Origin: Nitrospirota bacterium
GTDB taxonomy: Bacteria > Nitrospirota > UBA9217
NCBI GenBank assembly: GCA_963840455.1
Contig: CAWIYV010000011.1
Location: 320,001 to 384,000, forward strand
Direction of reading: 5' to 3'
Length of the DNA stretch: 64,000 nt
Part shown: piece after piece, positions 32,273 through 62,130 of the stretch
How the letters are laid out: every line of letters begins with the position of its first letter
Position numbering within the stretch: position 1 is the first letter of the stretch
Position numbers and translations under genes: made by a program
The notes under the pieces: model-generated
What the model saw: the letters and a program-made list of their open reading frames with translations, nothing else
The model's database searches: none
What the model was told of the DNA's origin: nothing

Positions 32273-32305
32273 AGTTCGTTCGATCCCGGATACTGGAAGG
32301 GAAGG

Positions 32306-32452
32306 TGTCGCGAGACAATTAAGTCCCAGCAAAATCGGCTCGCAACCCATTGATATTACGATACCATAAAAAACGACAAAGAAGCTAAAGTCGTCGTTTT
32401 TTCGACCGCGGAACAATTATGTCGTCGAATTTGCAGACAATTAAGTCGTCAC
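32306..32452 (+). mobile_element. Tn7-like end L1 (island boundary)
   Basis: TGTCGCGA-GACAATTAAGTC has the layout of Tn7 TGTGGGCG-GACAATAAAGTC; further TnsB-site copies near 32382, 32412 and 32436; base composition becomes AT-richer from here. Confidence 0.8.
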
Positions 32453-32578
32453 TAATTTCCAGCTGAATTTGAATCAATACCTCACTGGAGCAATACACTG
32501 AACTGGTTGCATCCTGCACAGAACAACGAAGTAAGCGCGCGAAGCTGTATTGTCACGGAGCGTCTGCATTTCGGGATT

Positions 32579-33202
32579 TTACGAGCCATTTGATGCGAAG
32601 CTTTTCCACTTTTCATTTTCAATTAATAAAGATCTGTGGATACGAATTGAACCGCATTCCTTTATGGATTTAAGTGTTCTCTTTACAGTCTCAAATACTG
32701 CTTGTGGTAGCCACGGGCTTAGTATGATTCGGTCAATGGCCTCAATAGATATTGGGAATCGATATGTCATAGGTCCCTTCTTCTTTATTCCTAAGAAAAG
32801 ACGAAACTCCTTTTCATCGCTGTATGCAGCGCGCTTTAAAAACGGAAGGGCCTTAGTTTTTGGACCAAATGATTCTAGCTCCAGAATAGTCTTGTACTGC
32901 ACTTCCTCGGCACGTAACCCAGTTACCTTGCTTGTGCTCCGCAAGAGGTTATCCTTGTCAAAAACTACGCATACGCCGCCACTTCCATGAGAAAACACTC
33001 TCCAGTGATGATATGTTTCTGGTGCTTGAGCCAGACAAAGTGCATAGGTACTCGATAAGCCCTTAGCGCGTGCATATTGCTCAATGTAGTATGAATCATT
33101 TCTATCGTCCCACGAGGAAGGATTGACTAGAACAATCTCCTTGGTCTGCAATAGGTCCACGACGTAGGGCATCTCAGTATATCTTCGAAGCATCGTTTCC
33201 AC
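32579..33202 (-). CDS. DUF2971-like protein
   Basis: P..WDDRND, LCL...E..HHW.., FLKR.AY.DEKEFR, IILSPW; RBS AAGGAGG. Confidence 0.7.
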   Translation of the reverse strand: METMLRRYTEMPYVVDLLQTKEIVLVNPSSWDDRNDSYYIEQYARAKGLSSTYALCLAQAPETYHHWRVFSHGSGGVCVVFDKDNLLRSTSKVTGLRAEEVQYKTILELESFGPKTKALPFLKRAAYSDEKEFRLFLGIKKKGPMTYRFPISIEAIDRIILSPWLPQAVFETVKRTLKSIKECGSIRIHRSLLIENEKWKSFASNGS

Positions 33203-33530: not shown

Positions 33531-33680
33531 TCAAGCCAAAATGAAGATGTCTCCCACCCATGCGTTGACACGGGCTATCATGGGCTGAATTGGCTCTCCG
33601 ATATGCTCCACACCTTTCCATCCGTCCCAATGAGCAAGTGTTCCATCTAAGTCAACACCGACCCAATCACCGTTTGACAT
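33531..33680 (-). pseudogene. Truncated HAD-superfamily protein (49 aa)
   Basis: MSNGDWVGVDLDGTLAHWDGWKGVEHIGEP...; DxDGT motif I; RBS GAGGGA; later HAD motifs missing. Confidence 0.6.
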
Positions 33681-34074
33681 TCAATCCCTCCATCCTCTCA
33701 AAGCGAGTCCTTTGATCCGGGAGACAGAACTCAGTGACTATCTCTGCTTTCATTTTCTCATCGCTGAGTATGTCCTTGCCGGCGATTACAATATATTTTC
33801 GTTTTTTTCGATCATATGCTACTCGACCTCGGAGGAGACCAGTCAATTGCTTCGGCATTCTTTTAGTCTGTTTCAATACGCTAGCAATAGAGCCCTCAAA
33901 ATGTACATTTTTCCGCGCGACATTGACGATACCATCAGCAACGGTGAAGCCAGGACAACCCTGTACATAATTGCCATATCGAATCGGAACAGGATCAGCA
34001 AACAATTCACCATTAGCAAAATAGAATATCCCGATTCGTGGAGTTCGCGCCTCGTACAGCTTTTTATGAAGCAT
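33667..34074 (-). CDS. Hypothetical protein
   Basis: 135-aa ORF, co-oriented with its neighbours, with GIFY and RGRV.YD motifs. Confidence 0.6.
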   Translation of the reverse strand: MLHKKLYEARTPRIGIFYFANGELFADPVPIRYGNYVQGCPGFTVADGIVNVARKNVHFEGSIASVLKQTKRMPKQLTGLLRGRVAYDRKKRKYIVIAGKDILSDEKMKAEIVTEFCLPDQRTRFERMEGLNVKR

Positions 34075-34243: not shown

Positions 34244-34528
34244 TTACCGTACAAAAAAATACCACAGCGCGGCCAGTGACGTTCCGCCCGGGCCGTCAAT
34301 CGCTTTTTGAATATCTTTTAGCTCCGCTATTTTCTTACCTGTTGAATCTTTAAAATACTTACCATCAAACTCACCGATTCGCTTACCTGTCGAATCTTTT
34401 ATTTTTTCGTTATCGATGTCACCAATTCTCTTGCCGCTTTTGTCTTTGATTTTCGTTCCATCTACCTGCGCCACTCTTGCACCGGTGCGGTCTTTTAAAG
34501 TTTCACCATCAAATTTGAAATTAGCCAT
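34244..34528 (-). CDS. Small beta-repeat protein
   Basis: Four 16-aa repeats (DG..IKD.TGK.I.); RBS AAGGAG. Confidence 0.75.
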   Translation of the reverse strand: MANFKFDGETLKDRTGARVAQVDGTKIKDKSGKRIGDIDNEKIKDSTGKRIGEFDGKYFKDSTGKKIAELKDIQKAIDGPGGTSLAALWYFFVR

Positions 34529-34630
34529 GTATTTTTCTCCTTTTTATTTTCTTCATTTATTCGCTGAAGTAAAACGCTGTCGAAAGAATAGGACTGTCAT
34601 TGAACTGGTACGACCAACAACAGCCAAGCA

Positions 34631-35305
34631 TTAACTTTCGTATTCAAAAGTATATTTGTTAGCGTAGGCTACAGCAACAATACTATTATCCTTGATCAAT
34701 CGCATCGTTCTATCCTGCTGCTTACCGGAAGATGCCGGCCAAATAATCATTCTCTTTACTGTATTTCCATCCCAGCTTGTTCCCTTTACAAGCAAAGTGA
34801 TTATTTTTTCAAATAGCTCTTTATGCCCCTCAATGGCCCTTGAGAAGGCTATACATTGCTTGATCAACTCGTCCAGTTTCCGATCACTTTTCAGCTCTAT
34901 TACCCATAGTGCACCGCTTGAATCAATCGCCAGTATATCATTGACGGCTTTCTTCCCGTCTTGCTCAACTCTCAATTCTGAGGTCACGAATTTTAGGTTG
35001 AGTTTTTTCCAAAAATCTGGCGGACTACCAAATATCAGCTGGTTGATTAGCCACGCTTGCAGCTCTTTTTCCGGAGTGGCTCTTTTAGGAGAGCTCAGAT
35101 TGTCTATTTTCGCTATCTTTTCTGAGGCGTTATTGGCATTGATTCCCGTCAAACCAAGTTCTGGTGTTTTATTACTGAGTGACACCAACGATACGCCACC
35201 CAACCCTCCGCGAAAATGACATTGTTTCTGTCTTAATACTTCATGATATTGCCCGTTGAGTTTGGCTGCCAACTCTATATACTGCATCTCAGGCACATTG
35301 TTCAC
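34631..35305 (-). CDS. PD-(D/E)XK nuclease-like protein
   Basis: E..LQ, SE, NDILAID, VIELK, Q motif series typical of NucS-like nucleases; RBS AAGGAGG. Confidence 0.7.
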   Translation of the reverse strand: MNNVPEMQYIELAAKLNGQYHEVLRQKQCHFRGGLGGVSLVSLSNKTPELGLTGINANNASEKIAKIDNLSSPKRATPEKELQAWLINQLIFGSPPDFWKKLNLKFVTSELRVEQDGKKAVNDILAIDSSGALWVIELKSDRKLDELIKQCIAFSRAIEGHKELFEKIITLLVKGTSWDGNTVKRMIIWPASSGKQQDRTMRLIKDNSIVAVAYANKYTFEYES

Positions 35306-35337
35306 GTTAAGCGCTCCCTCCTTGAGAAGACCAGGAT

Positions 35338-36577
35338 TTAAATTATCACCACCTGATGATCTTTTATTTCAAAAACATTATTAAATAGTTTTTTAAACTG
35401 ATCGCCATGCTCCGTGTGAATCGGCACTAGTTGTTTCGGATTCATTGCTTGTGCAAACCCTCGAAGATCCTCGACCGTCGCATGGCCGCTGGTGTGCGCA
35501 TACACAAATTTGATCTGCTTGTCATGCTGATATGCTGCTATCTGTTCAGCGCCATAGCATTCATCATTCGAGCACTTCAGGTAGCCAAGCCACTGCGAAT
35601 AAATGACGTTAACAGCTTTATCGCCTTTGTACAATTCAATAATGGGGGATTTTGACATCCTGGACAGATAGAGATATTGCTCGGGATTTGCCTTAAGCTC
35701 TTCCTTTTGAATACGATACTGATAAGCCGACCGTCTGAAATCACCGAATAGTTCCAGGATTCTTCTGGAGCACTTCATCATAATTGCGATCTGCATATAC
35801 TCGGACGTCATCCCACCCGATCCCCGGCACATTGGCGGTGACAGTACGCATCCGCTCCAGTACCCAGGCCGTATAGAGGTCGACCACAAATGTCTTCTCT
35901 GCCCTTTTACATGCGCGGTACGCTGATACAATCCGGTCGATATTCTGCGACGATGAGATCAGGAACGCGATGTTCTCCTGCTTAGCGATTGTATCATAAA
36001 TCTTTTTTTCGACGGCTTCCTCTGTTGGGAATTCATCATTTGACCGCTGCATCATGGTCCCTTCCATGAACATAACGTCGATATCCTTCGGCGGCTTCTC
36101 GATCATCTTATCAAACAGAACGCGTTTTCTGCCGTGAGCGCGAAAGTCCCCACTGTAAAAAATCCTCTTGCCTTCCGCCTCGATCAGGAACGCATATGCA
36201 TCTACTGCGGAATGATCAACCAGATACGGGGTAATAGTGAAATCGCCGATTTTAAATGGCTGCCACTTTTCAAAGTGACGGAATTCGTTCGCGAGCGGTT
36301 CTTTGCCGATAAAGATTCCGACCACATCAATCAGGCTTTTGCCGAGCTTGCCGATATAGACCGGCACGCTGTGGTCAAATGAGTCAATCAGCCCGTAATG
36401 GTCCTGGTGCGGATGGCTGATGATAATCGCATCGGCCTTTATTGATGATAGATCAAGCTTCCTACTCTCTTTACTGAGCGGCAACCCGAGGTCAAGCAAT
36501 ATGGTCGTCTTGGCGGTAGACAGCTGAATGCAGGTGCCCCCGATTTCGTTACTACCCCGATGAATGGTTATGTTCAT
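35338..36577 (-). pseudogene. MBL-fold beta-CASP nuclease (RNase J-like), split by a single +1 frameshift near 35755
   Basis: HPHQDH, DHS, SGDFR.HG and EGT in one frame, HTSGHA and PIHTE in the other; removing one G from AATCCTGGAA restores NPELFG. Confidence 0.8.
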
Positions 36578-36588
36578 GATGTTCCTTT

Positions 36589-36966
36589 TTAGCGCGGAAG
36601 TTCTTTTTTCAACCTTGCGGCATCGGCATCATATTGTCCGATCCTGGCCTGAAGTTCTTTTATCCGATCTTCCCGGCTGAGGTGTTTTGACAACCACTTC
36701 TCTTCCCGGTATTTTTCGTATTTGAGATACTCGGCCTGTTCCTGCAAATAGAGCAGCTTGCATTCACGAAAACTGAGACCAAGGATTTTTTCAATGCTGA
36801 TCGTTTCGATGTTTCTGGGATCTTCTTGTGACATGAAAGCATTATGGATATCGTAAGCGCACCCTTCACAGATTGGCGCATGAAGCAAGTCGCTCCATTC
36901 AAACACATCATCTTCATGGTCCGGACAGAGCGGACAGTGATAATTTCGGGAGACACGAATCTTCAT
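36589..36966 (-). CDS. Hypothetical protein with CxxC...CxxC zinc site
   Basis: CPLC and CEGC, coiled C-terminus; first gene after a WYL-box promoter. Confidence 0.65.
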   Translation of the reverse strand: MKIRVSRNYHCPLCPDHEDDVFEWSDLLHAPICEGCAYDIHNAFMSQEDPRNIETISIEKILGLSFRECKLLYLQEQAEYLKYEKYREEKWLSKHLSREDRIKELQARIGQYDADAARLKKELPR

Positions 36967-36989
36967 AATGACCGCCGATATCTGCTTCC

Positions 36990-37027
36990 ATTATAAATAT
37001 CACGCGTTACTGACAGCACTGTGTCAG
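36990..37027 (-). promoter_or_regulatory. WYL box 1 + -10 element
   Basis: Perfect CTGACA-N6-TGTCAG at 37010-37027; TATAAT 14 bp downstream on the minus strand. Confidence 0.7.
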
Positions 37028-37034
37028 CGTTAAA

Positions 37035-38003
37035 TTATTTTTTTGAATATACCGCCAGCATAGCTCGAAGCTCGGCTTGAACTTCTTTTCTGAACGGCAG
37101 CGGGGACAATACCTCGCAGTTCGGTCCCCAGTGATAAATCCACCGCTGAATTTCTCTGGTTCCTTGCACCGTGACACGATAGATTATTGACCCGTCCTTC
37201 TTCGTCTCAACCTTTTCGGTCGGATGCCACCTTTTTCTTGTAATCCAACGTGCAACGTCTTTACTGAATCTGAGTTTGATCTCGACCGGCTCACCATGTT
37301 TATAGATATGCCAGCCTGATTGAAAATATGCATCCATAGAGAAGTCTTTGGGGATGGCATATCTTCTGTCGGTTATCTCGATGTTCTTTATACAGTCAAG
37401 CGCGAATTGCCGAACGTCGCAGTATTTATTACAATAGGCGAGAACGTACCAAATACCGGAACTGAAAAAGAGACCATACGGATCGATCCTTCTTTCGGTA
37501 ATCTTCTGACCATGCATGGCCTGATACGTTATTTCCAGGCCGACGTTCTCATCTAAGGCCCGCTGGATGGCTTCGTACCTGTCCTCAATGTCGGCGAAGT
37601 TGTCGGCGGGGTCTATATCGAACCAGTAGTGCCCTTCAATGTTCTTGATTCGCTGGCCGGTTGCCTGACCAGAACCAGCCTTGATCTTATGCATCAAGCC
37701 TTGATAAGCTTTTGAAACGCCATGCCCCAGCTTCGAGACCACGGCCTTACTCGCCAAAACGGCCCTGATTTCGTCCGGACTCAAGTCGATCTTTTTCAGT
37801 GAGTACCCAGCCGTAAACCGGTACGAACCATGCTCTTCGTCGAAATAGATCGGGTATTCACTCGGGAAACACGCCATGTCCCGGTAGATGGTCCTCTCTG
37901 CTACACCGAAATGCTTTGCAAGCCCTTTCGGTGTTAGTGCTTTCCCGCTATCGATCAACCCGAGAATTTCAACCATCCGATTGATCCGTTTGACATCGGC
38001 CAT
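37035..38003 (-). CDS. WYL-domain transcriptional regulator (HTH-WYL-WCX)
   Basis: LA..FGVAERTIYRD wHTH; R.IDPYGL...WYVLAYC...R.F.LD.I; EVLSP..FR. ATG at 38003 with GGGGAGG RBS. Confidence 0.92.
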   Translation of the reverse strand: MADVKRINRMVEILGLIDSGKALTPKGLAKHFGVAERTIYRDMACFPSEYPIYFDEEHGSYRFTAGYSLKKIDLSPDEIRAVLASKAVVSKLGHGVSKAYQGLMHKIKAGSGQATGQRIKNIEGHYWFDIDPADNFADIEDRYEAIQRALDENVGLEITYQAMHGQKITERRIDPYGLFFSSGIWYVLAYCNKYCDVRQFALDCIKNIEITDRRYAIPKDFSMDAYFQSGWHIYKHGEPVEIKLRFSKDVARWITRKRWHPTEKVETKKDGSIIYRVTVQGTREIQRWIYHWGPNCEVLSPLPFRKEVQAELRAMLAVYSKK

Positions 38004-38033
38004 ACATGGCCTCCCCGCTTGATAAGTTACCAG

Positions 38034-38071
38034 ACTATAGCATAGTCCTATCACTGACGCAATGGTGTCAG
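38034..38071. promoter_or_regulatory. WYL box 2 between divergent genes
   Basis: CTGACG-N6-TGTCAG at 38054-38071; TATAGT 14 bp downstream toward the WYL gene. Confidence 0.7.
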
Positions 38072-38115
38072 TAGGCAAATGATAGAGTGGTCAATAACAT
38101 CTGGAGGGAATACAC

Positions 38116-39583: not shown

Positions 39584-39691
39584 GTAACAACTTTATTCCC
39601 TGCTAACTTTCCGGAAACGCAAAAATGTAACAACTATATTCCCTCTGCAACAACTTAGTTCCCAAAGTAACAACTTTATTCCCTGCAAACA
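39584..39691 (-). mobile_element. Tn7-like end R1 (faces left)
   Basis: Minus strand TGTTTGCA followed by GGGAATAAAGTTGTTAC-like 17-mers at 39667, 39647 and 39627 (20-bp period) and 39584. Confidence 0.82.
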
Positions 39692-39697
39692 GCAAGG

Positions 39698-39844
39698 TAT
39701 CAGAAGACCATTAAGTCCTTACAAAACCAGTCCGTAACCCATTGAATTAACTATTGCCGAAAAATCATCTAAAAAACTAAAGTTCTTACATTTTCGCGCT
39801 GCATACACTAATGTTGTCAAATTCGCAGACAATTAAGTCCTTAC
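39698..39844 (+). mobile_element. Tn7-like end L2 (terminal TGT changed to TAT)
   Basis: Colinear homolog of L1, with the same 122-bp spacing between the first and last GAC(A/C)ATTAAGTC sites. Confidence 0.75.
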
Positions 39845-40094
39845 TATTTTACAGCAGAAAATTACAGTCAACACCTCGATGAGAACACAACAAGTTAAGA
39901 GTGGTATTAAAAAGTTTATCACATATTCCCCCCCATTAGCAATCGTAATTCTGGGAAGGATAATATTAGCGAGGAAATGTGACCGATACGGAGAGGGGTG
40001 GAGCTATACCGTATTGAACATGCAGAAAGCCTCAGCTTTACCTACAACTCAGCACCGGAGCTATGTTGATAATGCTGAGAAATTCTGGTTGAAA

Positions 40095-40208: not shown

Positions 40209-41477
40209 TTACAGTGCAGGCATTGGCCAGCCGAAATAGTCAATCGCGTCGCGCCAGCCATTGTTTTTTATACTTTGACAAGTTAAGCCGGGTGGTGCGA
40301 TCCCCCAATGGTTGGTAACATATTTCATTTGAGTAATATTAATGCCAAGGTGCAGGTGATCATTAGCAGTATCCCTGATTATAGCCTTCGTTTTTTTATC
40401 GATTTTATAGGCTTTTCTGATTTGACCTATAGGTATATGATTCGCTACTTTAACCTCCGAGGCTACACCTGCGTTTGCTTTCAAGTCGCTTATTATGTGG
40501 CCATAGTATCCATATAGAGACTGACCATTACAGTCATGCTTTATAACCAAGAAGGCATTGAAATATTCATCATACTCATTCTTGTATTTGTTGCTGTTTG
40601 TCCAATTAAAGACAACAATACCATCGCAAATTGGATAAACATCTGTACCTTCTGGGACCATAATATCGACACCCTCATGTTCGCCATCGCCTGGATAGTT
40701 AGGATCGCACATGCGCCAATGAAATGTATAACTAACAGAATTGTCTAAAGGGAATCTTGGCTGGGTCGTGAAATAAAGCTCCTGTATTTCAGAGTCAGAC
40801 AGGGCACGGTTGTAAATTCGGACTTCATCAATGGTGGAGTTTACGTAGCCTCCCCACGTATTGGTGCCGAGGTAATTGTAATGCGTCCACTGTGGAACGC
40901 CCCCAGTATAGGGATTTGTTCCCTTTAGCTCTCCATCAATGTATATTTTGATGCCACCGGAGCCCCATGTTCCGACAAAATGATACCACTTGCCTGCAAT
41001 CGGCTGAACCCCACTGTCTGCCCAAAGCCAATTCCAAATGGATTTGTCATAGATTCCAAAAACAAGATTGTTCGAATAATAGGGGTGAACGCCAAAGTCG
41101 ATCCCTTCAAAATTCTGATTGATCGGATTCTCTGAGATGCAAAACCACATCCATCCATTACTTGGCAATGGATTAGGTACGGAATGAAAATATACCCAGG
41201 CAGACACGGCGCCATCAGCCAAATAACCCGGATGAGGTAATTCGATATAATCATCAATGCCATCGAAGGCGTAAGCCGTGTTTTCGCGGCCAGACCTATC
41301 TCCCGCTAGAGTTGCTCCATAGACAGCACCAGTGGCCCCGTGGCCGCTCTCATCATCGGCATTGCCATTAAACGGGTAATAAGCAACTAAGCCGTCGTTT
41401 AGATCAGCCGATGCTGAGCCAACCAAGAAAGAACCGACAAACAGAGCAAAAGCTATAAATATCAGGCTCTTCATCAT
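40209..41477 (-). CDS. Secreted LamG-like jellyroll + M23 peptidase protein
   Basis: Signal peptide; GLVAYYPFNGNA...IDEVRIYNRALS; HEGVD, YGH, HLH. Confidence 0.85.
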   Translation of the reverse strand: MMKSLIFIAFALFVGSFLVGSASADLNDGLVAYYPFNGNADDESGHGATGAVYGATLAGDRSGRENTAYAFDGIDDYIELPHPGYLADGAVSAWVYFHSVPNPLPSNGWMWFCISENPINQNFEGIDFGVHPYYSNNLVFGIYDKSIWNWLWADSGVQPIAGKWYHFVGTWGSGGIKIYIDGELKGTNPYTGGVPQWTHYNYLGTNTWGGYVNSTIDEVRIYNRALSDSEIQELYFTTQPRFPLDNSVSYTFHWRMCDPNYPGDGEHEGVDIMVPEGTDVYPICDGIVVFNWTNSNKYKNEYDEYFNAFLVIKHDCNGQSLYGYYGHIISDLKANAGVASEVKVANHIPIGQIRKAYKIDKKTKAIIRDTANDHLHLGINITQMKYVTNHWGIAPPGLTCQSIKNNGWRDAIDYFGWPMPAL

Positions 41478-42100
41478 AATCCTCCCGTTTTGATTCTATC
41501 CGCAAAATACTTTAATAAGCGATGAGGCTGAACATTAGAGTCGTCGTTGACCAAAATTAATACGAATGTATGCTTGAATCGTAGAGCTGTCAACAGTATT
41601 AATTGGATAGAGAACGGTGTAGTGCACGGGTTGAAAATTGATGTATTTTCATAAATGTAAATTCAATGGCTTCAGGATGAACTTATGACCATACACTTTA
41701 GTCAGAATCCTTCACTTCATTCAGAAAAATTCATATTTAGTGGCCACCTACAACTTTACCGACGCGCTCGATTGAAAGAACCGTGAAATATAAGCTGTCC
41801 TCTGCAGCATGATGAAGTCCGGCATAGCCGCAAAGACGATAAACCCGGGCAATGAGAAATGCTTATATCTTTACAACGTCGGGCATAAACTTCGCGTCAA
41901 TCTGTCCAGCGACTGCATAATATAGGAGTCTATTATATATTTTTCTGCATTAGCAATTGTAATTCCGAGAAGAACATTTTAGATGTGGAATTTGACCGAT
42001 ACGGCGAGAAGTGAACCTTAAATACTCATGCAATGCGCTGAACAGTCATTGAAATAAGAAAGGGGTTATTGTGTGCGGACAGTCAGAAGAACAAAAGAAC

Positions 42101-42204
42101 TATCGGGAAGACAATTAAGTCCTTACGAAACCAGTCCGTAACCCATCGATTTTACTATAGCCGAAAAATCACCCGAAAAGATAAGGTTCTTACATTTTCG
42201 CCCT
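42101..42204 (+). mobile_element. Truncated Tn7-like end L3
   Basis: Near copy of the first 100 bp of L2 (GACAATTAAGTCCTTAC.AAACCAGTCCGTAACCCAT). Confidence 0.7.
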
Positions 42205-42761
42205 ACAACCATCTGTCATAGCCGGCCGCCTTTGCTATGGCCAAGTGGGTCTGATCATACCAAGCATGGGCCGATTGAACTAGTCCGCTTATCAACAGAA
42301 GGAAGATAAACAAGATGGCAAGTAGTGATTTCATTAGTGGATTATATCAGGCATTCTGGCTTATGGAAAGTAGAGATATCCCCCGTTGATTTCACGATGA
42401 AAAGTTCTTTGTGTAAACTACAACTTGTGATATAGTCGTCCAATCAAAGAGTACTTCCTATACTCCTCATAGTTGCATTTCCTTGAAACATGCTCGGTTA
42501 CATTCTGTATTTGATGGAATACCATTAAAATACCCCATTGCGTTCGTTTCTATTTTGGGTTGACACACCCATTCGCCGTTACTTGACATGCCCTGATATA
42601 GGCATACATTTGCAGCACACTTAAGTGCATTAACGTTCTGCTAAAATCGTTTTATCGGCAAACTGCTGTAATTGAACTTTTTAATAGCTAGTTAGCTAGG
42701 AAGACTACTGCTCAACGTCAACCAATAGTCCGAACGGTCAAGGCTGTTTGACTTTTTATAA

Positions 42762-44651
42762 ATGGAGAAAGTGACGATGAGAAGGATTATTGTATGGGTT
42801 GTGGGTTGCTTGATGGTTGCCATTGGTCCTGTTGCGTGTGGAGGGGGCGGAGGCGGTAGTGCAAATAGTACGAGTAACTCGCCAGGATCAATCGGTCAAG
42901 CCGGAGGTATTATTTCTTCACAAAACGGAGACGCAACTCTAAGTGTACCGCCAGGAGCTTTAACTACTGCCACAAATATAACTATAGCTCAAACTGTCGA
43001 TGGTACTCCTCCTGGTACATTTATGAGCAGTTATGAAATAACTTCCACTGGCACCTTAACATTCAATACAGCCGTCACAATCAGTCTTAGATATGATTCA
43101 AGTTTAATTCCTATCGATGTTAATGAAAATGATTTGAAGTTGGCTTATGTATCTGAGGGAGAATGGATAACTATTCCAGCCTCAACAGTAGATACTAGTA
43201 ACCACATTATAATCGGAAATATGACCTATTTCCCATTGAGTAAGGTGGAAAGCGCAAAAGCCTTGCCCAACGCGGTTTCAACGACTCCATCCAAAGTAAA
43301 AGCAATTGTTGGTAGTTCTGCGCCAGCAAATTGCAGCAATCACGGCGTTATAATAATGGGATCCTTTAATTCTGTTGATGTTTACTCTAACGGCTGCATA
43401 AAATACAATTCCTACTATAACAAAGAATACAATTGCGGCAGCGGAACCTACGATTATGTCAGTGGCAGTTGTGTAAATGGAACTTTTACCGGATTGAAAT
43501 GGGAGTGTGTCGAGTATGTGAATAGATATTACCTGTCAGTTTATGGGAAAGACATAGCTTTTCCAAGGAAAGATGCGAGAGATTACTACAATACTGCACC
43601 CTCTCGAGGTCTTGTTTCCTATCCAAATGGTACTTCTGCAACTCCCCAAATAGGAGACATTTTAGTATCGGAAGGCGATGGCAAAGCAAATAATGTTGGA
43701 CATGTGGCTATTATTAAAGAGGTAGCAACCGATCATATTATTGTTGTGCATCAGAATTGGTCTAATGCTAGCAATGATTTTGCCTCAAATTATCGTATCA
43801 GTAGAAATGGTAATTTCATTAATCCATTTAGTTCAGATAATAGTTACCCGATAAAGGGTTGGGTCCGATTACAGTCAACTTATTCCATTAGTGGCACGAT
43901 CCATTCAATAAGTAATTCTGGACCTGCACTATCCGGGGCAACAGTCTCTATTGCAGGTAAGACGGTTACCACAAGCGACACTGGGACGTTCTCTATTTCC
44001 GGAATCCCAGCTGGCACGTATACATTTTCCGTCGCTAAATCAGGCTATGAGACCTACACCAACGTGACATACCCTGTTGGTTCTAATCTGACAGGCCTTA
44101 ATTTCTACCTGACTCAGACCGTTACCTATTCCATGAGCGGCACAATTCATTCAGTGAACCTCTCAGTACCGCTGCCTGGAGCAACAGTTTCGATTGCCGG
44201 TATGACCGCGACTACTAGCAGCAGCGGGACATTCTCCATTGACGGTATCCCAGCTGGCTCGTATACATTTTCCGTCGCCAAATCGGGCTATGAGACCTAC
44301 ACCAACGCAGCATACCCTGTTGGTTCTAATCTTACAGGCCTTAACTTCTACCTGTACCTGGCGCCGCCCTTCGGTTCATTAGCGATTAATTTTTCAACAT
44401 GTGCTGCCGGGTTATCATGGGACTATTCGACTATTGATCTAGCTCATCAAAGTGCCTTGCAGGCGTGTGGTATTGGTTGCATTTTAACATACGATTATGG
44501 CAAAGGTACATGTGCTGCATTTGCAGTAGGTGCTTCTGGGTGCGGAGGTTATGGTGGATGTGATACGCTCGACGAGGCGCTATCAGGCGCAATAAGTGAG
44601 TGTAACAAATATTCCACTGGATGCTATGTAACCTTGTCGGGATGCAATTAA
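42762..44651 (+). CDS. Lipoprotein: ZU5-like + CHAP + two carboxypeptidase-regulatory-like repeats + Cys-rich (DUF4189-like) domain
   Basis: Lipobox VAC; WECVEYV.RY and GHVAI CHAP motifs; DNA-level tandem repeat 43881-44111 / 44127-44354. Confidence 0.8.
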   Translation: MEKVTMRRIIVWVVGCLMVAIGPVACGGGGGGSANSTSNSPGSIGQAGGIISSQNGDATLSVPPGALTTATNITIAQTVDGTPPGTFMSSYEITSTGTLTFNTAVTISLRYDSSLIPIDVNENDLKLAYVSEGEWITIPASTVDTSNHIIIGNMTYFPLSKVESAKALPNAVSTTPSKVKAIVGSSAPANCSNHGVIIMGSFNSVDVYSNGCIKYNSYYNKEYNCGSGTYDYVSGSCVNGTFTGLKWECVEYVNRYYLSVYGKDIAFPRKDARDYYNTAPSRGLVSYPNGTSATPQIGDILVSEGDGKANNVGHVAIIKEVATDHIIVVHQNWSNASNDFASNYRISRNGNFINPFSSDNSYPIKGWVRLQSTYSISGTIHSISNSGPALSGATVSIAGKTVTTSDTGTFSISGIPAGTYTFSVAKSGYETYTNVTYPVGSNLTGLNFYLTQTVTYSMSGTIHSVNLSVPLPGATVSIAGMTATTSSSGTFSIDGIPAGSYTFSVAKSGYETYTNAAYPVGSNLTGLNFYLYLAPPFGSLAINFSTCAAGLSWDYSTIDLAHQSALQACGIGCILTYDYGKGTCAAFAVGASGCGGYGGCDTLDEALSGAISECNKYSTGCYVTLSGCN

Positions 44652-46198: not shown

Positions 46199-47920
46199 CT
46201 ATGCCGCAAATTTGGTATTTCCATTTAAACGAACTTCTTGTCGTCGTACTCCATAAGCCTCTTTCGATTCCGAATATTTATCAAGAACCCATTTGCATTT
46301 AGGATATCTTTCATACTTGGCCAAGATCTTGAGTCCGAGACCAGCCTCTTTGATTATGGCTGTTCGAGTAGCTCGCTTATGCGGTACGGCTATTCTGATC
46401 TTTTCAGCAGCTTTAGTTAACATCCCGCTCCAGAGTCGATCACGGCTCGCCCAATCGATATAACGAGGTGGCTTCGAATTATGACTCCATCTTCTTGCTT
46501 CCGAAAATAACCATGCTCGGTCGTTTCGTAGCAACCGGATGTAAAGCCCTTTGTTTGCTCTTGCAGCCAGTTTCCGGCTTCGGTTCGGCACTTTGCTGAG
46601 AAGTTTCAGCCATTCCTTGCGCCATTGATCTATTTTCTGCTCAGTAACCCTATAGATCGGTCTTTTTGCCTGAAGCATGTTCTTGATGGCTCTGTCACGG
46701 ACACCCATCTTTTTCGCGATAGCAAGCATAGAAAGCCCGCTCCTCCGAAGCCGCCCTGCTTCTTCCTCCCAGGTAGGCCCATATTGCATGACTTTGCTTA
46801 TGACAGGCATCTGAGGATCGCTTTCGCTGACTGCCTGGAACGTGAAATGGAACCCACAGCTACACCGAGCGGATGCGACGTATTTTCGATGCTTATGGCC
46901 TATATATATTATCGGATTTTTAATCGGATATTCTTCATCATGCTTACCATAGGGATTTGGACATCTCCATGGCCCAAGGCCGAAAGGAATCTTATCGGTG
47001 ACTTTGGCGGTGACGCTTTCCAAGAAGAGTTGAACAAGTGCATGTTCCAATGGGTGGAAGGTCTTTTTGGCCGATCTGAATATGTTTCGGAACCAGCTAC
47101 CGTTATGACCAATACGGAAATCGCATTGCAAAAGTCGAAGTAATCTATGTCCAAAGTAAGCAACGAAACCCTTTTCTAGCTTTGCCAAGGATAATTGGAT
47201 CGCACCTTCTATGTATCCGTGCTCTATCGCTTCTTTGCGGTAGATTTTGGTTATTTCTTCTCCTTCCCATCCCGGTATCTGTCTCTGCAGCATATCGCGG
47301 CTTCGACGTGCTATCATCAGAGCCTTATCATGATCACTTTTATTTAAGGCTTTAGATATATTCGCCTGGAAATCTGATGTCGCGTTCGTGGCATCAATAT
47401 AATCGTCGAAGCCTTTAGGATGCATAAGCGCCGAGGTATCAATCAATTGATCACCATGCTCGGGACAAACCAAGACTCCCGGCAGTTGATGACAACGATG
47501 CCAATAAGTTTCTCCATATTTGTCGATGTCATTTCTACTGCAAATATTGCAGAAACGAAGATGGCGTGGTCCTTTAATACGATTCGTCACTATTCCTAAC
47601 TTAAGCTGAATCCCGCTACTATTGTTTGACAATAGTTTTTTTATACATAATGCTGTGTGCTTCGCCGATGTATATCTAGAAAAGTAAGGAAATAATGTGA
47701 AACTATTAAGAAGTTCTTCCCCTTTTCTATTCCATGTCATCATAGTTTTTCTGCAAATAACGCTAAGTGAACTCTGCAATAGTGTCGTAGGTCTTGCAAC
47801 GTGCCCTGTCAATTCAGCCATAACGCCCGCAAAATTACTTGACGATATTTGCATCAAGTATCGAGTAAGAATACTATAAAACAACTCATCCTCATAAGCC
47901 TCGTTCATATACATTCTCAT
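46199..47920 (-). CDS. tnsD: TnsD-family target selector, copy 2
   Basis: EDELFYS..RY, FCNIC, YWHRCHQLPG...CPEH, GPWRCPN, CSCGF, DW..RD..W. Alternative start at 47941. Confidence 0.88.
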   Translation of the reverse strand: MRMYMNEAYEDELFYSILTRYLMQISSSNFAGVMAELTGHVARPTTLLQSSLSVICRKTMMTWNRKGEELLNSFTLFPYFSRYTSAKHTALCIKKLLSNNSSGIQLKLGIVTNRIKGPRHLRFCNICSRNDIDKYGETYWHRCHQLPGVLVCPEHGDQLIDTSALMHPKGFDDYIDATNATSDFQANISKALNKSDHDKALMIARRSRDMLQRQIPGWEGEEITKIYRKEAIEHGYIEGAIQLSLAKLEKGFVAYFGHRLLRLLQCDFRIGHNGSWFRNIFRSAKKTFHPLEHALVQLFLESVTAKVTDKIPFGLGPWRCPNPYGKHDEEYPIKNPIIYIGHKHRKYVASARCSCGFHFTFQAVSESDPQMPVISKVMQYGPTWEEEAGRLRRSGLSMLAIAKKMGVRDRAIKNMLQAKRPIYRVTEQKIDQWRKEWLKLLSKVPNRSRKLAARANKGLYIRLLRNDRAWLFSEARRWSHNSKPPRYIDWASRDRLWSGMLTKAAEKIRIAVPHKRATRTAIIKEAGLGLKILAKYERYPKCKWVLDKYSESKEAYGVRRQEVRLNGNTKFAA

Positions 47921-47933
47921 TTGCCATCCCTCA

Positions 47934-49640
47934 CTACTCATTTCTTAAACATGAACTTTGTGAATTCTGCGTTTTATCAATCGCGGCAATTTGCAATCCG
48001 AGTACTTTCTTACACTTTGGAAGCTTCTGCAGGTCGGCAATTACATCATGATAATTAAGCGATGTTTTGCTTACTATCTGACGCAATAAAATACGTGCTT
48101 TTCTATTGCTAACTGTCGATTGCAACATAGCCTTGACTAACATCTGACTCCACTGCTTATCGCGAGATGATCAATCGACCTTTTTCCCTCTAAAATTTTT
48201 TACACTTTTGCGCCGTTTATCGTTAGTAGAAAGCAGCCATTTAGAATCATGACGCTTCAATTTTCTATAGATCGATGGGTTCTTTCTAGAAGCTCCAACA
48301 TAACGCTGCTCAGAAAGAGAGTCTATTGTCGCAAGCCACTCCTTTCGCCATTGTTTAATTTGCAATTTCGATACGCTCCTAAACTTCCTTTTCAGTAGTT
48401 GGCACACTCTGGACGCATCCGTACCCATTATTTCCCCGATGGTTCTGAATGTGTACCCTTTTTTTCGCAACCTTGCTGCTTCTGATTTCCACGTGGGTCC
48501 AAACCGAGATATTCGAGCAATTATTGGCATTGCTGCATCTTGAGCATCTGTTTCAGAAAAAATGAAGCAGAACCCGCAATTACACGTTGCAAGCGCTTCG
48601 ACTTCGTTACGGTTATTGGTTCTATAAATGATCATATGTCGTTTCAACGGAAATGGCTCTTTATGATGCGCATATTTGTTGGGACATTTCCAGGGCCCGG
48701 CCGAGAATCTGACTTTATGTGATGTTCTAACTTCAGCTGTATTTTCTAAAAATGTTTGCATTAATGCGTGCGCCGCTGGATTTGCAAGAAATACGTCGTT
48801 AGTGAATAACCTTTTTATCCAATGGCAACTATTGTCAGTTAAATTTAAACCATATCTGGCAAGCAACTTATCGCCGAAATATGTTCTAAAAGCCTCCCTT
48901 ATTTTATTTTGTGAAATGTAAAGAGATCCATCAACGAATCCACGTGCTGATGCCGCCTCTCTATAGGCATTTGTCAATTCCCGCAGATGCCAACGGGTCA
49001 TTGTTCCATTAAGAATCTCTTGGCATCTCTTCGCAACAAGAAAAGCACGTTCCCTTTCTATATTGTTTAATATGGCGCCAATTTGACAGTGCTCTTCCTT
49101 TGCATTAGATGCATTCGCATAGGAGAGGTAGGCATTGTGAACTATGCGACTTTGAGTACTGATTAATTCTTCTCCATGCACAGGACATACTAAAGCACCG
49201 GACAGCTGATGAATTCGATGCCAATATGCTTCACCGTATGACTCCATATCAAGAGCCTTGCATATTTTGCAGAAGCGTAATGTACGCGGAGGTTTCAGCA
49301 AGCCCAAAAAACCTCCGGGCTTAAAGTCGCTTGTTTGCATATTACCTAATTCATAATATTCTTTATACCTAGATTTCCCAACATCATTTACATATCGCGT
49401 ATAGTATGGATACATAGTGTGGTTCTGCAATAAATCATTACTGCTCAGCCCCCAGGCAAGAAATGTCTTTTCCGCCATAATGCTGATGGATATTGGAATG
49501 TGTGCATTAACTGAAGTTAATCGATCAGTCAGCGCTATGCACAATTTACTAGGTACAATGATGCCGGCATGATCAGAGTATCGCGCATTTACGCTATACA
49601 GCAGCTCATCCGGATAAGGGATAGGCGGATATAGTCTCAT
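47934..49640 (-). pseudogene. tnsD: TnsD-family target selector, copy 1, with a premature TGA at 48171-48173
   Basis: PYPDELLYS, FCKIC, YWHRIHQL, GPWKCPN; the frame continues VD*SSRDKQW, aligning with IDWASRDRLW of copy 2. Confidence 0.85.
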
Positions 49641-49650
49641 ATTAATTCCT

Positions 49651-51201
49651 TCAATCTTTTACTTCGATCAGTCCGGCCGATGCTAATGCGTTGACGGCAT
49701 TAGCACCACCGCCTTTTTGTACTACCTCTGCAAGGCTGTCCCCTCCGCTGACACATGGTCCTTTGTCTTTGGCCGTCGCATCCAAGACCATACGAACTGC
49801 ACGCTCAGATGTAAGATCCGGATATATGTCAAATAGCGTGCCCAGAATCTCTTGAGCCTGATCTTCGTCATATTTCATCGCAACCAAAGCACAAGCAGCA
49901 CTCATGCGTTCGTATTCCTGGTCTCTTTTCTTAGCACTCGCCTCTAGCTTCCCTAATTTGGCATCGACATCGACTTGCTTGGACAGATCTCTGATTCCTG
50001 CGTCAAGGAGATCCTGGTAATTGGCAATCGCCTTTCTATTTTTTTTCCTCAAGGCTTCAAGCATTGGTTCAACAAGTTTGAACTTATCATCGGCCACCTT
50101 GATGATTTGTTCGATTGAGATACCTGGTGCCTTTGTTCTAAGGGCGTCCAATTGCGTCAATTGAAATAATCTGACAACAAGAGCATGAATTCCCTGGGTG
50201 CGTTCTCTCATTACCGTTGACAGTTCATCGGTCAACGGCACAAACTTATCGGTCCATTGGTACTTCCAGAGTCCATTTAAAAAAAACTTCCATTCTTTTT
50301 TATCCAGACAATCCCAAATGCAGGTACCGTAATCGCCTACGCGCCTTGCTTCTCTGAATGTACCCGTCAGCATCTGCATGGCGCGAGGAGTTCCGATCGT
50401 TACAACAGGAATTTTCGCATTAGCAAACGCAACGAAAAAATTCAGCATCTTGCTTTGTCCAACACCACTTGCATCAAGCAAATTCTGAATTTCATCAATG
50501 ACCAATACACCTAAATTATGCATTTCAGTAATATTGGCCACACTCGATATTAATTCATCAATCGTTCCTTTCGAACTAACCTGCTTACGATACGAAGAAT
50601 CGAGAAGAGAGTCGAGTTTGCTGAGGATACCAAGAAGCAGCTGCTTGAGACTGCCGTCCAAAGGGCAGTCGGCTTTAAGCCAAACCACCTGGGTAAACTT
50701 GAACCTTGAGTGCATTAAGACCTGTGGCAAAAATGAAAGGGTTCTATCGGCCACGGTTGATTTTCCCACGCCCGAAGTTCCAAACAAAGCAAACGATGGC
50801 GCAGTTGATGGCCCTGACTCTTCAATTGCACAGATGTCGCCATTCATTGCTTTTCGATAGCGCTCTGTTCGACTTTTCCTATATGCAGGATCTATCGGAT
50901 TGCGAAATGCATAACCTGCTCGAACAATTAGATTAATCTTTTCGATAACCTCATAGTGAGATGGCAATGGCTCCAAGTAATTATTGATACGGGTTATAAG
51001 CAATGTTCGATCTGCTCTCGGCAAGAGTCTTTCTGCTGCGGATATCCTGGGAAAGCGACCAAATTTTTCCGAAATTTCATTTGCTTCTACGAATTGCGGC
51101 AGCGCCTCTAATAGGGGATTCCCTTTATGTTCCTTAATCGTAGACTCCTTATAAATGGCTTCCATCATTGCTGAAGGCATCTCGCTATCAGTCTTCTTCA
51201 T
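49651..51201 (-). CDS. tnsC: TnsC AAA+ ATPase
   Basis: GNPLLEALP, Walker A GTSGVGKS, CP.DGS, Walker B IDEIQ, FREARR. Confidence 0.92.
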   Translation of the reverse strand: MKKTDSEMPSAMMEAIYKESTIKEHKGNPLLEALPQFVEANEISEKFGRFPRISAAERLLPRADRTLLITRINNYLEPLPSHYEVIEKINLIVRAGYAFRNPIDPAYRKSRTERYRKAMNGDICAIEESGPSTAPSFALFGTSGVGKSTVADRTLSFLPQVLMHSRFKFTQVVWLKADCPLDGSLKQLLLGILSKLDSLLDSSYRKQVSSKGTIDELISSVANITEMHNLGVLVIDEIQNLLDASGVGQSKMLNFFVAFANAKIPVVTIGTPRAMQMLTGTFREARRVGDYGTCIWDCLDKKEWKFFLNGLWKYQWTDKFVPLTDELSTVMRERTQGIHALVVRLFQLTQLDALRTKAPGISIEQIIKVADDKFKLVEPMLEALRKKNRKAIANYQDLLDAGIRDLSKQVDVDAKLGKLEASAKKRDQEYERMSAACALVAMKYDEDQAQEILGTLFDIYPDLTSERAVRMVLDATAKDKGPCVSGGDSLAEVVQKGGGANAVNALASAGLIEVKD

Positions 51202-53398
51202 TACTGTGTTACCTCCCTTTGTTTGCGTTTGGCTTCGAGTACTGCTAATTCTTCGTCGAGATAATCGTTCCCCCGTGATGCTGGCATTTCCTTCGTAATG
51301 TTGTGAACCGAGTCATTCGTCGCGTCGCTCAGATAGAATGTTTCAACCTTCCGCTGCAAGCTCTTTTCATCGGCTTTGTGCGTCCCGATATTTGCAGTCC
51401 TTTCAGATTTTGTAGCATTTGGATTACGAACGGCCTTTGTCTCCTTTGTTGCTTTGCTGACAATTTCCTCCGTGCGCTTGTCTTTTAAAAGTCTTTTGGC
51501 TTGCTTGCCATCTTCTTTCTCAACCTCGATTCTTTTCTTGTCTAAATCGAGTTCTTCTTCCTCGAATAAGGAAACGCCCAGAAGGTCGCTGCTGCTGTCA
51601 AGTAACCGACAAACCTCGAAGCCTTTTTCCATTTTGGGGTCATGAGCGTAAAGAATACCCAGATTCCGCGGATCATATGAGACATCAATTGTCCAAGTCT
51701 CTTTGCGGGCCTTAGCAAACCACTCTTCGTGAATTGCGGTATCACATGAATAGTAGGCTTTCTTGAAGTTGATGCCCTTCGCAGTGACTCTTGCTGTATC
51801 TCGTGGCATAACGTTAAGTCTTACATTATCGAGTGTCAGTCTTCTCAATTTACCGCTTCGATTCTGTATACCCCACTCCCAGAGATCCAGAGGACATGCT
51901 GTTAACCCCTCTGTGATCATTTCTGCTGGCAGTTTAAGCCCCTCAATCGTTTCTTCATTATGTTCTAGAACCGCCAAAATCACCAATTGTGTAAATTCGT
52001 ACAGATTTAATGTTGCTTTTAGCCGGTAGTCTTCTGCACCCCGCTCATTAAAGTCTTTCTCAACATAGCCGGGTGCAAATGGTCGGAATTTTGCCGGCAC
52101 AATACCAAATCTGCGTTCGACCAGAGCTTTTAAATCGGCCCTGCCTGGACTTGCATTTTCGATATCAATTTTGAGATTTTCTACGATATTTTGACCGAGG
52201 TCCACGCTCATAAGTTCGCCCCGATCTCCCATAAGGCGTCTAGGGGCATCTTGAGAGGGCCATTCATCAGCCTCAATATCTAGGTCATATTGACGGCAGA
52301 ACTCGACCTTGTCCATGACCATGTTCGTGAGCGCCATCATTGCTCCAACCCATGATGGACCTTCAAAACCGACATAAATGCCAGTTATCAGTCTACTGAA
52401 CACATCAATAACAAAATAGATAACTGGTCTTCCGACTATCCTTCTCCGGTCCTTGCTCGAGACCAAGTAAATATCCGCAATAGTAGCATCCACTTGGAAT
52501 CTATCTCCTGGGCCTTGGACATCGCCGTCAGCTCTCCCCGTTATCGGACGCTCATTCTTATCCCAGTTCCTCTGACCATGCCTTCGTCTCCGCTTCTTGC
52601 CAAATGGAAATGTCTTGCTGATGTAATACTGCAACTGCCTTAGTGATGGTTTCTTGTCATTATCGATCTGATAATCTATAATTTTGCCCTTATCATCTTT
52701 GATAGCCTTTGAGAAGAAAATGCGCACCATTCTGTCGTACGCGTCTTTCAAAGTAAACTTTTTCTTTCTCAACCAGAATTCGGCGCCTTGCTTGATCGCC
52801 TTTGTTATGTAATCACCGACTATGTTTACCCCTGTTCTCGTCTTATCCTTCCTAGGCGCCCCCAATTTTACGTCCTCTCTTACCCGACGCACTCGATCGG
52901 GATCCTTTATCGTGCCGCACTTATGATAATCGGGACGGAGCGCCTGATATGTCATGCCGCGCTTCCAATAGCGCCTTAACATGTCAACGATCGTGTCATA
53001 TGAACTGTTAACTTCATTCATTCTTTGGCGTATCAAATTCTTGCGAGAGCTTTTTATGAGGATTAGGCTCTCATTATCGCCATTGATTAATGGTTCGATC
53101 AATTCATATCGTTGCCGGTGCATCGCTTCGTTTTTGGGATTTGCCTTCCCAACCATAAAGCAGTCCCACGGATCCTCAGGCTCAATGAATAACGACCATG
53201 CTCCTGGTTCAATTGGGTTTGCAAATCACCTCTTGATAATTTAAAGGGCCATGAATGGTCATCGATCCGGCAAAGCCATATTGTTGAGCTGAAGGAATCT
53301 ATCGAAACGACTCGTAGGAGAACCTTATTGTTGCTGTCACTCAAGTACTTATCTAGTAGCAACATCCGAACAACTATTAATTTGCCATTATCCTTCAT
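51201..53398 (-). pseudogene. tnsB: TnsB DDE transposase, frameshifted near 53185
   Basis: FQVDAT, GRP.IY..IDVFSR, GDRGE, VERRF; the N-terminal ~70 aa lie in another frame (ORF 53099-53431) and rejoin at IEPEDPW. Confidence 0.88.
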
Positions 53399-61659: not shown

Positions 61660-61739
61660 TTACGCATGCTGCGTAAAAAGTCCTTGACTCGAGGGACTTG
61701 AACTGGTATTGTAAGGATGGGATTACGCATATTGCGTAA
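61660..61739 (+). promoter_or_regulatory. Sigma70 promoter flanked by two palindromic operators
   Basis: TTACGCA-N3-TGCGTAA at 61660-61676 and 61723-61739 around TTGACT(61684)-17-TATTGT(61707). Confidence 0.8.
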
Positions 61740-61752
61740 AAGGAGGTGTGCG

Positions 61753-62127: not shown

Positions 62128-62130
62128 TTG

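Follow-up and report, generated by a model that had tools for sequence, protein, structure and literature searches.

A WYL-linked pair of beta-CASP and PD-(D/E)XK nucleases in a Nitrospirota genomic island: a candidate mobile defence or conflict module

The locus and its two nucleases

The DNA analysed here, referred to as the window, is a stretch of 64,000 nucleotides (nt) from a Nitrospirota bacterium. On its minus strand, between 33.5 and 38.1 kb, lie five co-oriented genes encoding a WYL regulator, a small Cys/His (zinc-finger) protein, a metallo-beta-lactamase (MBL)/beta-CASP nuclease split between two frames, a PD-(D/E)XK nuclease and a beta-flower protein (Table 1). The last four had been singled out in a preliminary description of the sequence as a candidate defence or DNA-damage system, and they stand where they had been placed, behind the WYL gene. 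The locus is part of a low-GC island (0.38-0.50) that begins near 32.4 kb and adjoins native DNA of 0.55-0.66 GC.

Pfam recognised Lactamase_B_2 (3e-14) and RMMBL (1.9e-7) in the pieces of the MBL protein. Seven motifs are distinguished in beta-CASP enzymes, MBL motifs 1-4 (D, HxHxDH, H and D) and beta-CASP motifs A (D/E), B (H) and C (H/V). All of the corresponding residues (D29, H55xH57xD59H60, H122, D144, E172, H365 and H387) are found across the two frames of the window and are invariant in 20 homologues, so that the protein has the full set of motifs first attributed to it; on these motifs and the two Pfam domains it was assigned to the beta-CASP metallo-beta-lactamase nucleases. No curated NCBIfam model was matched above its cut-off by the family. 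The RNase J model TIGR00649 scored 48.8 bits (3.4e-13) with the N-terminal piece and 23.2 bits with the C-terminal piece against a cut-off of 400, and the CRISPR type VII Cas14 model scored 51 bits against a cut-off of 800, a comparison confined to the protein model, cas genes and CRISPR arrays not having been searched for. The nearest solved sequence relatives are Enterococcus faecalis EF2904 (2az4, 5.9e-17, uncharacterised) and then RNase J (PDB, 1.9e-13). With the beta-CASP branch that holds RNase J, CPSF-73, SNM1/Artemis and Cas14 the protein thus shares the MBL fold, HxHxDH and motifs 1-4 and A-C, whereas it differs in falling far under the NCBIfam cut-offs, in its length of 412 amino acids (aa) without an extra C-terminal domain, and in being paired with or fused to a PD-(D/E)XK protein.

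Intact MBL homologues are 412-413 aa long, the closest being 96% identical over the N-terminal piece. The single frameshift reported earlier was traced to the GG at 35754-35755, where one G is surplus; it falls after the E172 motif and before that of H365. At the break the window reads '...YDEVLQKNPGTIR*' ('...KNPGTIR*', the asterisk being a stop), where intact homologues continue as '...YDEVLKKNLELFGDF...' ('...KNLELFGDF', 'NPEVFGNF'). The site was compared with contigs of relatives from public sequencing runs (X1-X4, ~90-95% identical to the window). Every contig listed there, namely X1, X2 and two of X3 from two studies, has one base fewer at 35756-35758; the X4 piece begins at 35758 and does not span the site. 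Since these contigs lack the extra base, the insertion is private to this assembly. The largest share of the window's sampled words present in any public run was 0.08, and no RNA run was listed. Programmed frameshifting was considered and dropped, as a slippery motif was not seen at the site and MBL homologues are single open reading frames (ORFs) of ~412 aa. Real decay is likelier than an assembly error, with reasonable though far from full confidence, because the neighbouring hsdR carries two in-frame stops and two frame changes and because the HAD-like gene of the same module has been cut down to 49 aa. Given the frameshift, the window copy of the module is probably inactive.

The gene for the PD-(D/E)XK protein, which follows, is intact. 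The 224-aa product matched no Pfam family at E<=0.01, NucS (PF01939) and Shedu (PF14082) included; among its 97 detectable homologues, one bears NucS/DUF91 as its source name. Across 46 sequences, E79, D123, E137-x-K139 and Q150 do not vary. An AlphaFold 2 (AF2) model, of high quality (predicted local distance difference test, pLDDT, 93.8; predicted template modelling score, pTM, 0.90), superposed best on the catalytic domain of Pyrococcus abyssi NucS (2vld_B; Z 11.4, root-mean-square deviation 2.3 over 107 residues), followed by SduA of Shedu (8ps4_A; Z 10.5, 2.8 over 133 residues) and an XisH-like protein (2okf_B; Z 9.2, 3.3 over 117 residues). The invariant signature, together with many fold matches of the predicted structure, four of them at a Z of at least 8, places the protein in the PD-(D/E)XK superfamily. 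The likeness to NucS spans residues 78-217 only; residues 1-75 form a separate small domain for which the structural search matched nothing. The earlier term 'NucS-like' is therefore valid for the predicted fold of the catalytic domain only, and is not extended to the N-terminal domain or to the Pfam family. NucS/EndoMS is moreover a conserved repair enzyme, unlike the hypervariable and mobile partner family found here. SduA has a similar PD-(D/E)XK fold and its family likewise varies strongly in the non-catalytic parts, but Shedu is described as a single-component system, whereas the present nuclease has a beta-CASP protein coupled or fused to it and matched none of the PADLOC Shedu models. 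The only PADLOC match of the partner was a short one to PDC-S11 (2e-6 over 43 residues).

PADLOC-DB 2.0.0 held no family for the MBL protein (tested as the window pieces, as the intact homologue P0001 and as a paralogue from the same genome), for the zinc-finger protein or for the beta-flower protein, as had been expected of a combination without a name. In the full-text literature searched, which excluded subscription journals and supplements, no description of a beta-CASP and PD-(D/E)XK pair was found.

Table 1. Features of the nuclease locus and of the surrounding island, in window coordinates.
Feature	Position	Strand	Remarks
Candidate operator, 18-bp palindrome CTGACGCAATGGTGTCAG	38054-38071	.	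Upstream of WYL gene; putative autoregulation site
Helix-turn-helix (HTH)-WYL-WCX regulator	37035-38078	-	Pfam WYL/WCX and PADLOC WYL models
Candidate operator, second palindrome copy CTGACAGCACTGTGTCAG	37010-37027	.	14 nt upstream of operon -10 box
Predicted -10 hexamer, perfect TATAAT	36990-36995	-	Precedes zinc-finger and MBL genes; promoter predicted from sequence
125-aa Cys/His (zinc-finger) protein	36589-36966	-	Optional insert in operon leader; Cys/His cluster, then helical hairpin
MBL/beta-CASP nuclease gene, 412-aa family	35338-36577	-	+1-split; frames 35741-36577 and 35338-35931
224-aa PD-(D/E)XK nuclease	34631-35305	-	Intact; swappable partner of MBL; predicted catalytic residues E79, D123, E137-x-K139, Q150
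94-aa 5-fold beta-flower protein	34244-34528	-	Pfam PF21785; hydrophobic C-terminal helix; accessory third gene
135-aa protein, no known family	33667-34074	-	Recurrent accessory downstream of pair; homologues in other loci
49-aa remnant of small HAD-like (polynucleotide-phosphatase-like) gene	33531-33680	-	Compared with 111-aa protein of locus L007
DUF2971 protein	32579-33202	-	Left edge of module; PADLOC candidate PDC-S31 match, 7.1e-17
Direct repeats of ~150 nt	32290-32455, 39682-39847		Flank the module; third copy 42086-42207; mean column identity 75%
Four copies of 17-mer GTAACAACTTTATTCCC	39584-39683		Precede second ~150-nt repeat
Secreted cell-wall hydrolase-type protein	40209-41477	-	
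Secreted cell-wall hydrolase-type protein	42762-44651	+	
Tn7-like set	46199-54221	-	tnsA, tnsB-like, tnsC, two tnsD/tniQ paralogues
hsdR pseudogene	55829-58476	+	Three same-frame pieces split by the in-frame stops, then the frame changes
hsdM	58479-59933		Intact
hsdS	59930-61312		Intact
HTH and metallopeptidase-like proteins	61717-62727	+	Downstream of hsd genes; weak CapH (5.3e-9) and CapP (1.3e-10) matches (CBASS-type regulators)

Conservation of the pair and exchange of its partner

Relatives of the MBL protein were collected at one genome per species; of 552 returned, the best 80 loci (designated L and a number) were kept and, with the paralogue locus of the same genome, gave 81, in 78 of which an MBL ORF was clear. 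A pair was scored where a same-strand ORF of at least 150 aa began -60 to +300 bp from the MBL stop. Such an ORF was present in 61 of the 78 loci, one of the 61 being an insertion sequence (IS) transposase, and several of the 17 loci without one show contig ends or broken genes at that place. The proteins encoded downstream were grouped into clusters of 21, 10 (that of the window among them), 9, 8, 6 and 2, with six singletons. Most are without a Pfam family; one matches DUF2779 clearly, and matches below threshold were obtained to MmcB-like (L005, 8e-4), SduA_C (L027, 0.0059), PDDEXK_4 and NERD. The signature D-x(10-15)-E-x-K is nevertheless present in all six multi-member clusters. When the cluster profiles were compared with one another, clusters 0 and 1 and clusters 2 and 3 were linked at 87% probability, other comparisons being weak.

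The MBL family as a whole comprises 1,007 representatives, clustered at 50% identity, at E<=1e-30 among 1.84 billion cluster representatives. In 22 of the best 150 of these the protein is at least 540 aa long, and in 11 the extension matches a partner-cluster profile. The fusions (10 C-terminal and one N-terminal) thus occur in both orders and involve four partner clusters; one, P0342, carries the partner type of the window itself (4.9e-53). Taken together, the sequence comparisons indicate that the MBL protein and its PD-(D/E)XK partner are one functional unit, and the co-conservation on which the original proposal depended is seen both in the 61 loci and in the fusions.

The partner is exchanged even between closely similar MBL proteins. 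Among 123 pairs of MBL proteins with at least 70% identity x coverage (54 loci), partners matched one another at E<1e-3 in only 41, and in the extreme case (L076 and L080) the MBL proteins are 97.6% identical while the partners cannot be aligned. The same is visible close to the window, where contigs X1, X2 and X3 track it through the regulator and MBL genes and diverge at 35474-35477, inside the last ~45 MBL codons. The interval 34593-34985 is uncovered by the relatives' contigs, and no conclusion was drawn from that gap alone. The gene upstream of the MBL showed no conservation across the loci, and no cognate methylase, antitoxin or immunity gene conserved with the pair was seen across them.

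The regulator and the island

The regulator matched Pfam WYL (1.6e-19) and WCX (5e-20), both above cut-off, and the PADLOC WYL models (2.9e-41). The HTH_11 match was weak (0.003; 17.8 bits, below the cut-off of 25); the protein is counted as an HTH-WYL-WCX regulator. Its ORF opens at a TTG (38078), although the ATG at 38003, preceded by GGGGAGG, is the likelier start. Three copies of the 18-bp palindrome CTGAC-N8-GTCAG were counted in the window, where 0.21 would be expected, and the WYL gene has one of them on either side, the first 50-70 nt upstream of the likely ATG and the second just upstream of the perfect TATAAT that is predicted to serve the nuclease operon; this arrangement fits the WYL-box promoter originally postulated. 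In the relatives' contigs the arms of the copy at 37010-37027 are free of listed differences, the one listed change being in the spacer (37021). Scans of the window with consensus promoters and terminators did no better than chance, with 8 promoter-like sites (8.0 expected) and 2 terminator-like ones (4.0 expected).

WYL genes are present in 18 of the loci, usually adjoining the pair, so the suspected link to this class of regulator extends beyond the window. That the palindromes are WYL operators, and what the ligand may be, is proposed by extension from CapW, BrxR and DriD, of which CapW and DriD are reported to sense single-stranded DNA (ssDNA). As in the BrxR, CapW and DriD operons, an HTH-WYL-WCX protein stands next to its presumed target, with palindromes at its own and the target promoter; unlike in those operons, the presumed target is a nuclease pair, which does not figure among the systems reported for these regulators.

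The distribution of the MBL family is patchy. It was not matched at E<=1e-40 in 40 relatives of the bacterium, five of them from the same genus, yet the best 80 loci span many phyla, and the family is spread over Desulfobacterota, Acidobacteriota, Campylobacterota, Bacteroidota, Nitrospirota and alphaproteobacterial plasmids. It was found in 10 plasmid records, no phage records and 3 viral contigs. A second, intact pair is present in the same genome (contig C4; L004, 8129-10602, minus strand), with an MBL protein 67% identical to that of the window and a partner of 252 aa. It is followed by a 146-aa membrane zinc-ribbon-like protein, and an IS transposase, an HNH protein and an AriA/AriB-like pair are nearby.

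The module had been described as bounded by Tn7-like ends. It is flanked by direct repeats of ~150 nt, and 8 kb from it the low-GC island also contains a Tn7-like set; an inverted, TnsB-type pair of ends was not found by repeat and k-mer searches. The repeats cut the island into segments, perhaps because insertions have stacked up at a single attachment site. A setting among Tn7 and defence genes is supported, as the island holds, besides the tns set, a PDC-S31-like gene, a type I restriction-modification (R-M) system and a CapH/CapP-like pair. It also encodes two secreted proteins of cell-wall hydrolase type, one with LamG and M23 peptidase domains and the other with CHAP, CarboxypepD_reg and DUF4189.

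For the neighbourhoods of other loci, every second locus with full flanks was taken (14 loci; L079 was dropped, leaving 13 with 142 proteins). Defence neighbours in this sample were Wadjet JetABCD (L044), PDC-S01 (L005), SoFic (L075) and a BrxHII/DrmD-like Snf2 helicase (L046), and a copy on a Rhizobium plasmid has methylase and GIY-YIG neighbours. Transposases, integrases and UmuC/S24/SRAP genes were also met with around the sampled loci. Genes for transposases or integrases occur in 11 of the 80 loci, most loci having no element genes within 8 kb. In L059 (5960-8004) an IetA/IteA-like AAA ATPase (PADLOC IetA 4.5e-36; NCBIfam IteA 3.2e-34, below cut-off) and a 171-aa gene stand directly upstream of the MBL pair, with a WYL gene and an S24 and UmuC pair downstream.

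Defence, repair and other readings

A reading of the locus as a WYL-controlled, horizontally mobile two-nuclease module of innate defence or conflict, inactivated in the window, is favoured by the exchange of partners, the fusions, the patchy distribution, the setting among mobile and defence genes and the WYL linkage taken together; we hold it at about even confidence. The module's constant part would be the ~412-aa MBL/beta-CASP nuclease, and its variable part the downstream PD-(D/E)XK endonuclease, exchanged as a cassette and probably setting what is recognised. The WYL protein would bind the 18-bp palindromes and hold the promoter down until ssDNA from phage attack or DNA damage lifted the repression; the PD-(D/E)XK partner would then cut the target nucleic acid and the beta-CASP enzyme degrade it from the new ends, with the zinc-finger, beta-flower, 135-aa and HAD-like genes as optional accessories.

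A precedent for MBL nucleases as defence effectors exists (PMC12799240), in that MBL-fold nucleases act with a trypsin-like protease as exchangeable effectors in Avs1, Hachiman, Lamassu and DRT9 (PMC12799240, PMC9226505). The likeness lies in the use of an MBL-fold nuclease as a defence effector module. The difference is that those enzymes are described as ComEC-like and are partnered by a protease, whereas a beta-CASP enzyme with a PD-(D/E)XK partner is found here.

Several observations weigh against a defence role. Known defence families in PADLOC-DB 2.0.0 gave no match to the MBL protein, and the window's own copy is frameshifted. Of the 13 loci sampled, only some 4 had a clear defence system within 7 kb; because random control loci were not scored, this figure is not a measure of enrichment, and defence enrichment is not established by it. 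Motif C of the MBL family is His, which is typical of RNA-cleaving beta-CASP members. Finally, genes for UmuC, S24, SRAP or DnaE-type proteins occur in 12 of the 80 loci, and HAD-like and phosphoesterase genes recur, all of which points towards DNA repair. Defence and DNA damage, the two roles between which the preliminary description had left the choice, are exactly the readings that survive the comparative data.

Repair is the next reading to be considered, and is possible although rather unlikely. The module would be a cassette for the repair or tolerance of DNA damage, induced through a WYL activator or repressor as ssDNA builds up and processing complex lesions such as crosslinks or blocked ends. 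By analogy with eukaryotic SNM1A acting with XPF/FAN1 and translesion synthesis (TLS) polymerases, the PD-(D/E)XK protein would make the incision and the beta-CASP enzyme resect in the 5'-3' direction, with phosphatases restoring the ends and the gaps being filled by translesion or PHP-domain polymerases. It is the polymerase, UmuDC and phosphatase neighbours that keep this role alive. UmuC with S24 was found within 8 kb of the pair in L015, L029 and L059, S24 alone in L014 and SRAP in L015. HAD-like homologues of the 49-aa remnant follow the pair in 7 of the 80 loci, the 111-aa protein of L007 giving a weak PHROG match to polynucleotide kinase (2.1e-7), and third genes of calcineurin-like phosphoesterase type were read from the sequence in L040 and L055. 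The MmcB-like match of the L005 partner, weak and below cut-off, points the same way, as does the control of DNA-damage responses by WYL regulators such as DriD (PMC13004042).

DnaE-type genes, co-oriented with the module and beside it, are present in 9 of the 80 loci (L007, L025, L051, L063, L065, L067, L073, L075 and L079, of which L075 was added from Pfam HHH_6 and NCBIfam matches). Several are truncated (480, 480, 570, 790 and 793 aa), and in two the palm domain is short of about 100 model positions, which weighs against the repair reading. A full-length dnaE is retained elsewhere in all four genomes tested, and the fragments are 30-77% identical to the dnaE of their host. Since the L025 fragment is closest to the gene of its own host (77%, against 37-49% to other fragments), independent capture of the fragments is suggested. 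In P0275 an MBL protein is, as read from sequence alone, seemingly fused to a DnaE-like segment. Further points against repair are the exchange of unalignable partners between MBL proteins 97.6% identical, which would not be expected of repair enzymes, the absence of matches in the 40 relatives searched, and the location in IS-, Tn7- and plasmid-borne variable regions beside defence genes.

Improbable, though less so than the readings that follow, is a selfish module that serves its carrier by restriction-like addiction or exclusion, or by the processing of element DNA, and does not protect the host. Both copies in the genome of the window have mobile contexts, one in the Tn7-like island and the other beside an IS; the transposase or integrase genes in 11 of 80 loci, the ten plasmid records and the mosaic neighbourhoods are also in keeping with it. 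Against it, no cognate methylase, antitoxin or immunity gene is conserved with the pair, most loci are without element genes within 8 kb, and the module is not bound to one type of element.

The truncated DnaE genes allow a more specific form of the defence reading, which is speculative and quite unlikely to be correct. A constant beta-CASP executioner and a fast-exchanged PD-(D/E)XK sensor-nuclease would act in guard or decoy immunity, with truncated copies of the host's own DnaE (PHP/palm), captured repeatedly in several lineages, as bait for phage proteins directed against the replisome.

The four genes of the window had been presented as a unit, and an obligate four-component system with essential zinc-finger and beta-flower proteins would follow from it. 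This claim did not hold: with iterated profiles the zinc-finger gene was detected at 5 loci, the beta-flower gene at 4 and WYL at 18, whereas the pair is present at 61, and the sequence comparisons indicate that the zinc-finger gene is a rare insert and the beta-flower gene an occasional third gene. Only 9 homologues of the zinc-finger protein were found in 5.8 billion proteins; the 40 relatives of the bacterium gave no match to it, and nor did Pfam, NCBIfam, PADLOC and PHROG. Residues C11, C14, H17, C33 and C36 are invariant in 9 sequences, and the AF2 model (pLDDT 89.7) predicts a small metal-binding knuckle and a helical hairpin; a fold search returned nothing at Z 8, the best matches (Z 6.8) being helical hairpins only. 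Contigs X1 and X2 retain the gene, whereas X3 and X4 skip 36589-36988, so that in them 23-29 other bases separate the base after TATAAT from the start of the MBL gene. For the beta-flower protein the Pfam match (PF21785, Bflower_2) passed narrowly, with 39.3 bits against a cut-off of 38; the fold was described in 2023 without a known function (PMC10584680).

In favour of a four-component system, the zinc-finger, MBL and PD-(D/E)XK genes co-occur in the closest relatives, on contigs matched by size (all three on that of 35,611; those of 124,279 and 4,634 hold the zinc-finger gene with the MBL side), and the beta-flower gene comes after the partner gene at two loci, L041 and L043, and is near the MBL in L025 and L061. 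Relatives at ~90-95% identity without the zinc-finger gene, the presence of neither gene at the closest genome locus, L005, and more distant beta-flower homologues that do not adjoin an MBL gene tell against it. The comparative data thus largely refute this reading, which is very improbable.

Least credible of all, indeed scarcely tenable, is a housekeeping RNA-processing paralogue of RNase J type beside a chance neighbour: the best named relatives are RNase J (PDB 1.9e-13; TIGR00649 3.4e-13) and an RMMBL domain is present, but the family scores 48.8 against the TIGR00649 cut-off of 400, was not found in the 40 relatives and comes with a linked or fused nuclease partner, and it is by this distribution and these fusions that the reading is contradicted.

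The pair defines a large family, of 1,007 clusters, without an assigned function. If the defence reading is true, immunity would gain a two-nuclease design whose specificity partner is exchanged as a cassette, and the family would be a natural experiment in the swapping of immune specificity; if repair is, the processing of lesions by beta-CASP enzymes would have a WYL-controlled counterpart in bacteria. With an intact paralogue present in the genome, the question can be put to a direct test.

Of the remaining accessory genes, that for the 135-aa protein matched nothing in Pfam, NCBIfam or PHROG. In L042 and L044 a homologue of it comes after the partner gene, and elsewhere it is found together with the beta-flower gene (L098; a 1.5-kb metagenome contig). 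At L005 (7763-7948) the WYL gene is reduced to its last 62 codons while the MBL and partner genes are intact, the reverse of what is seen in the window.

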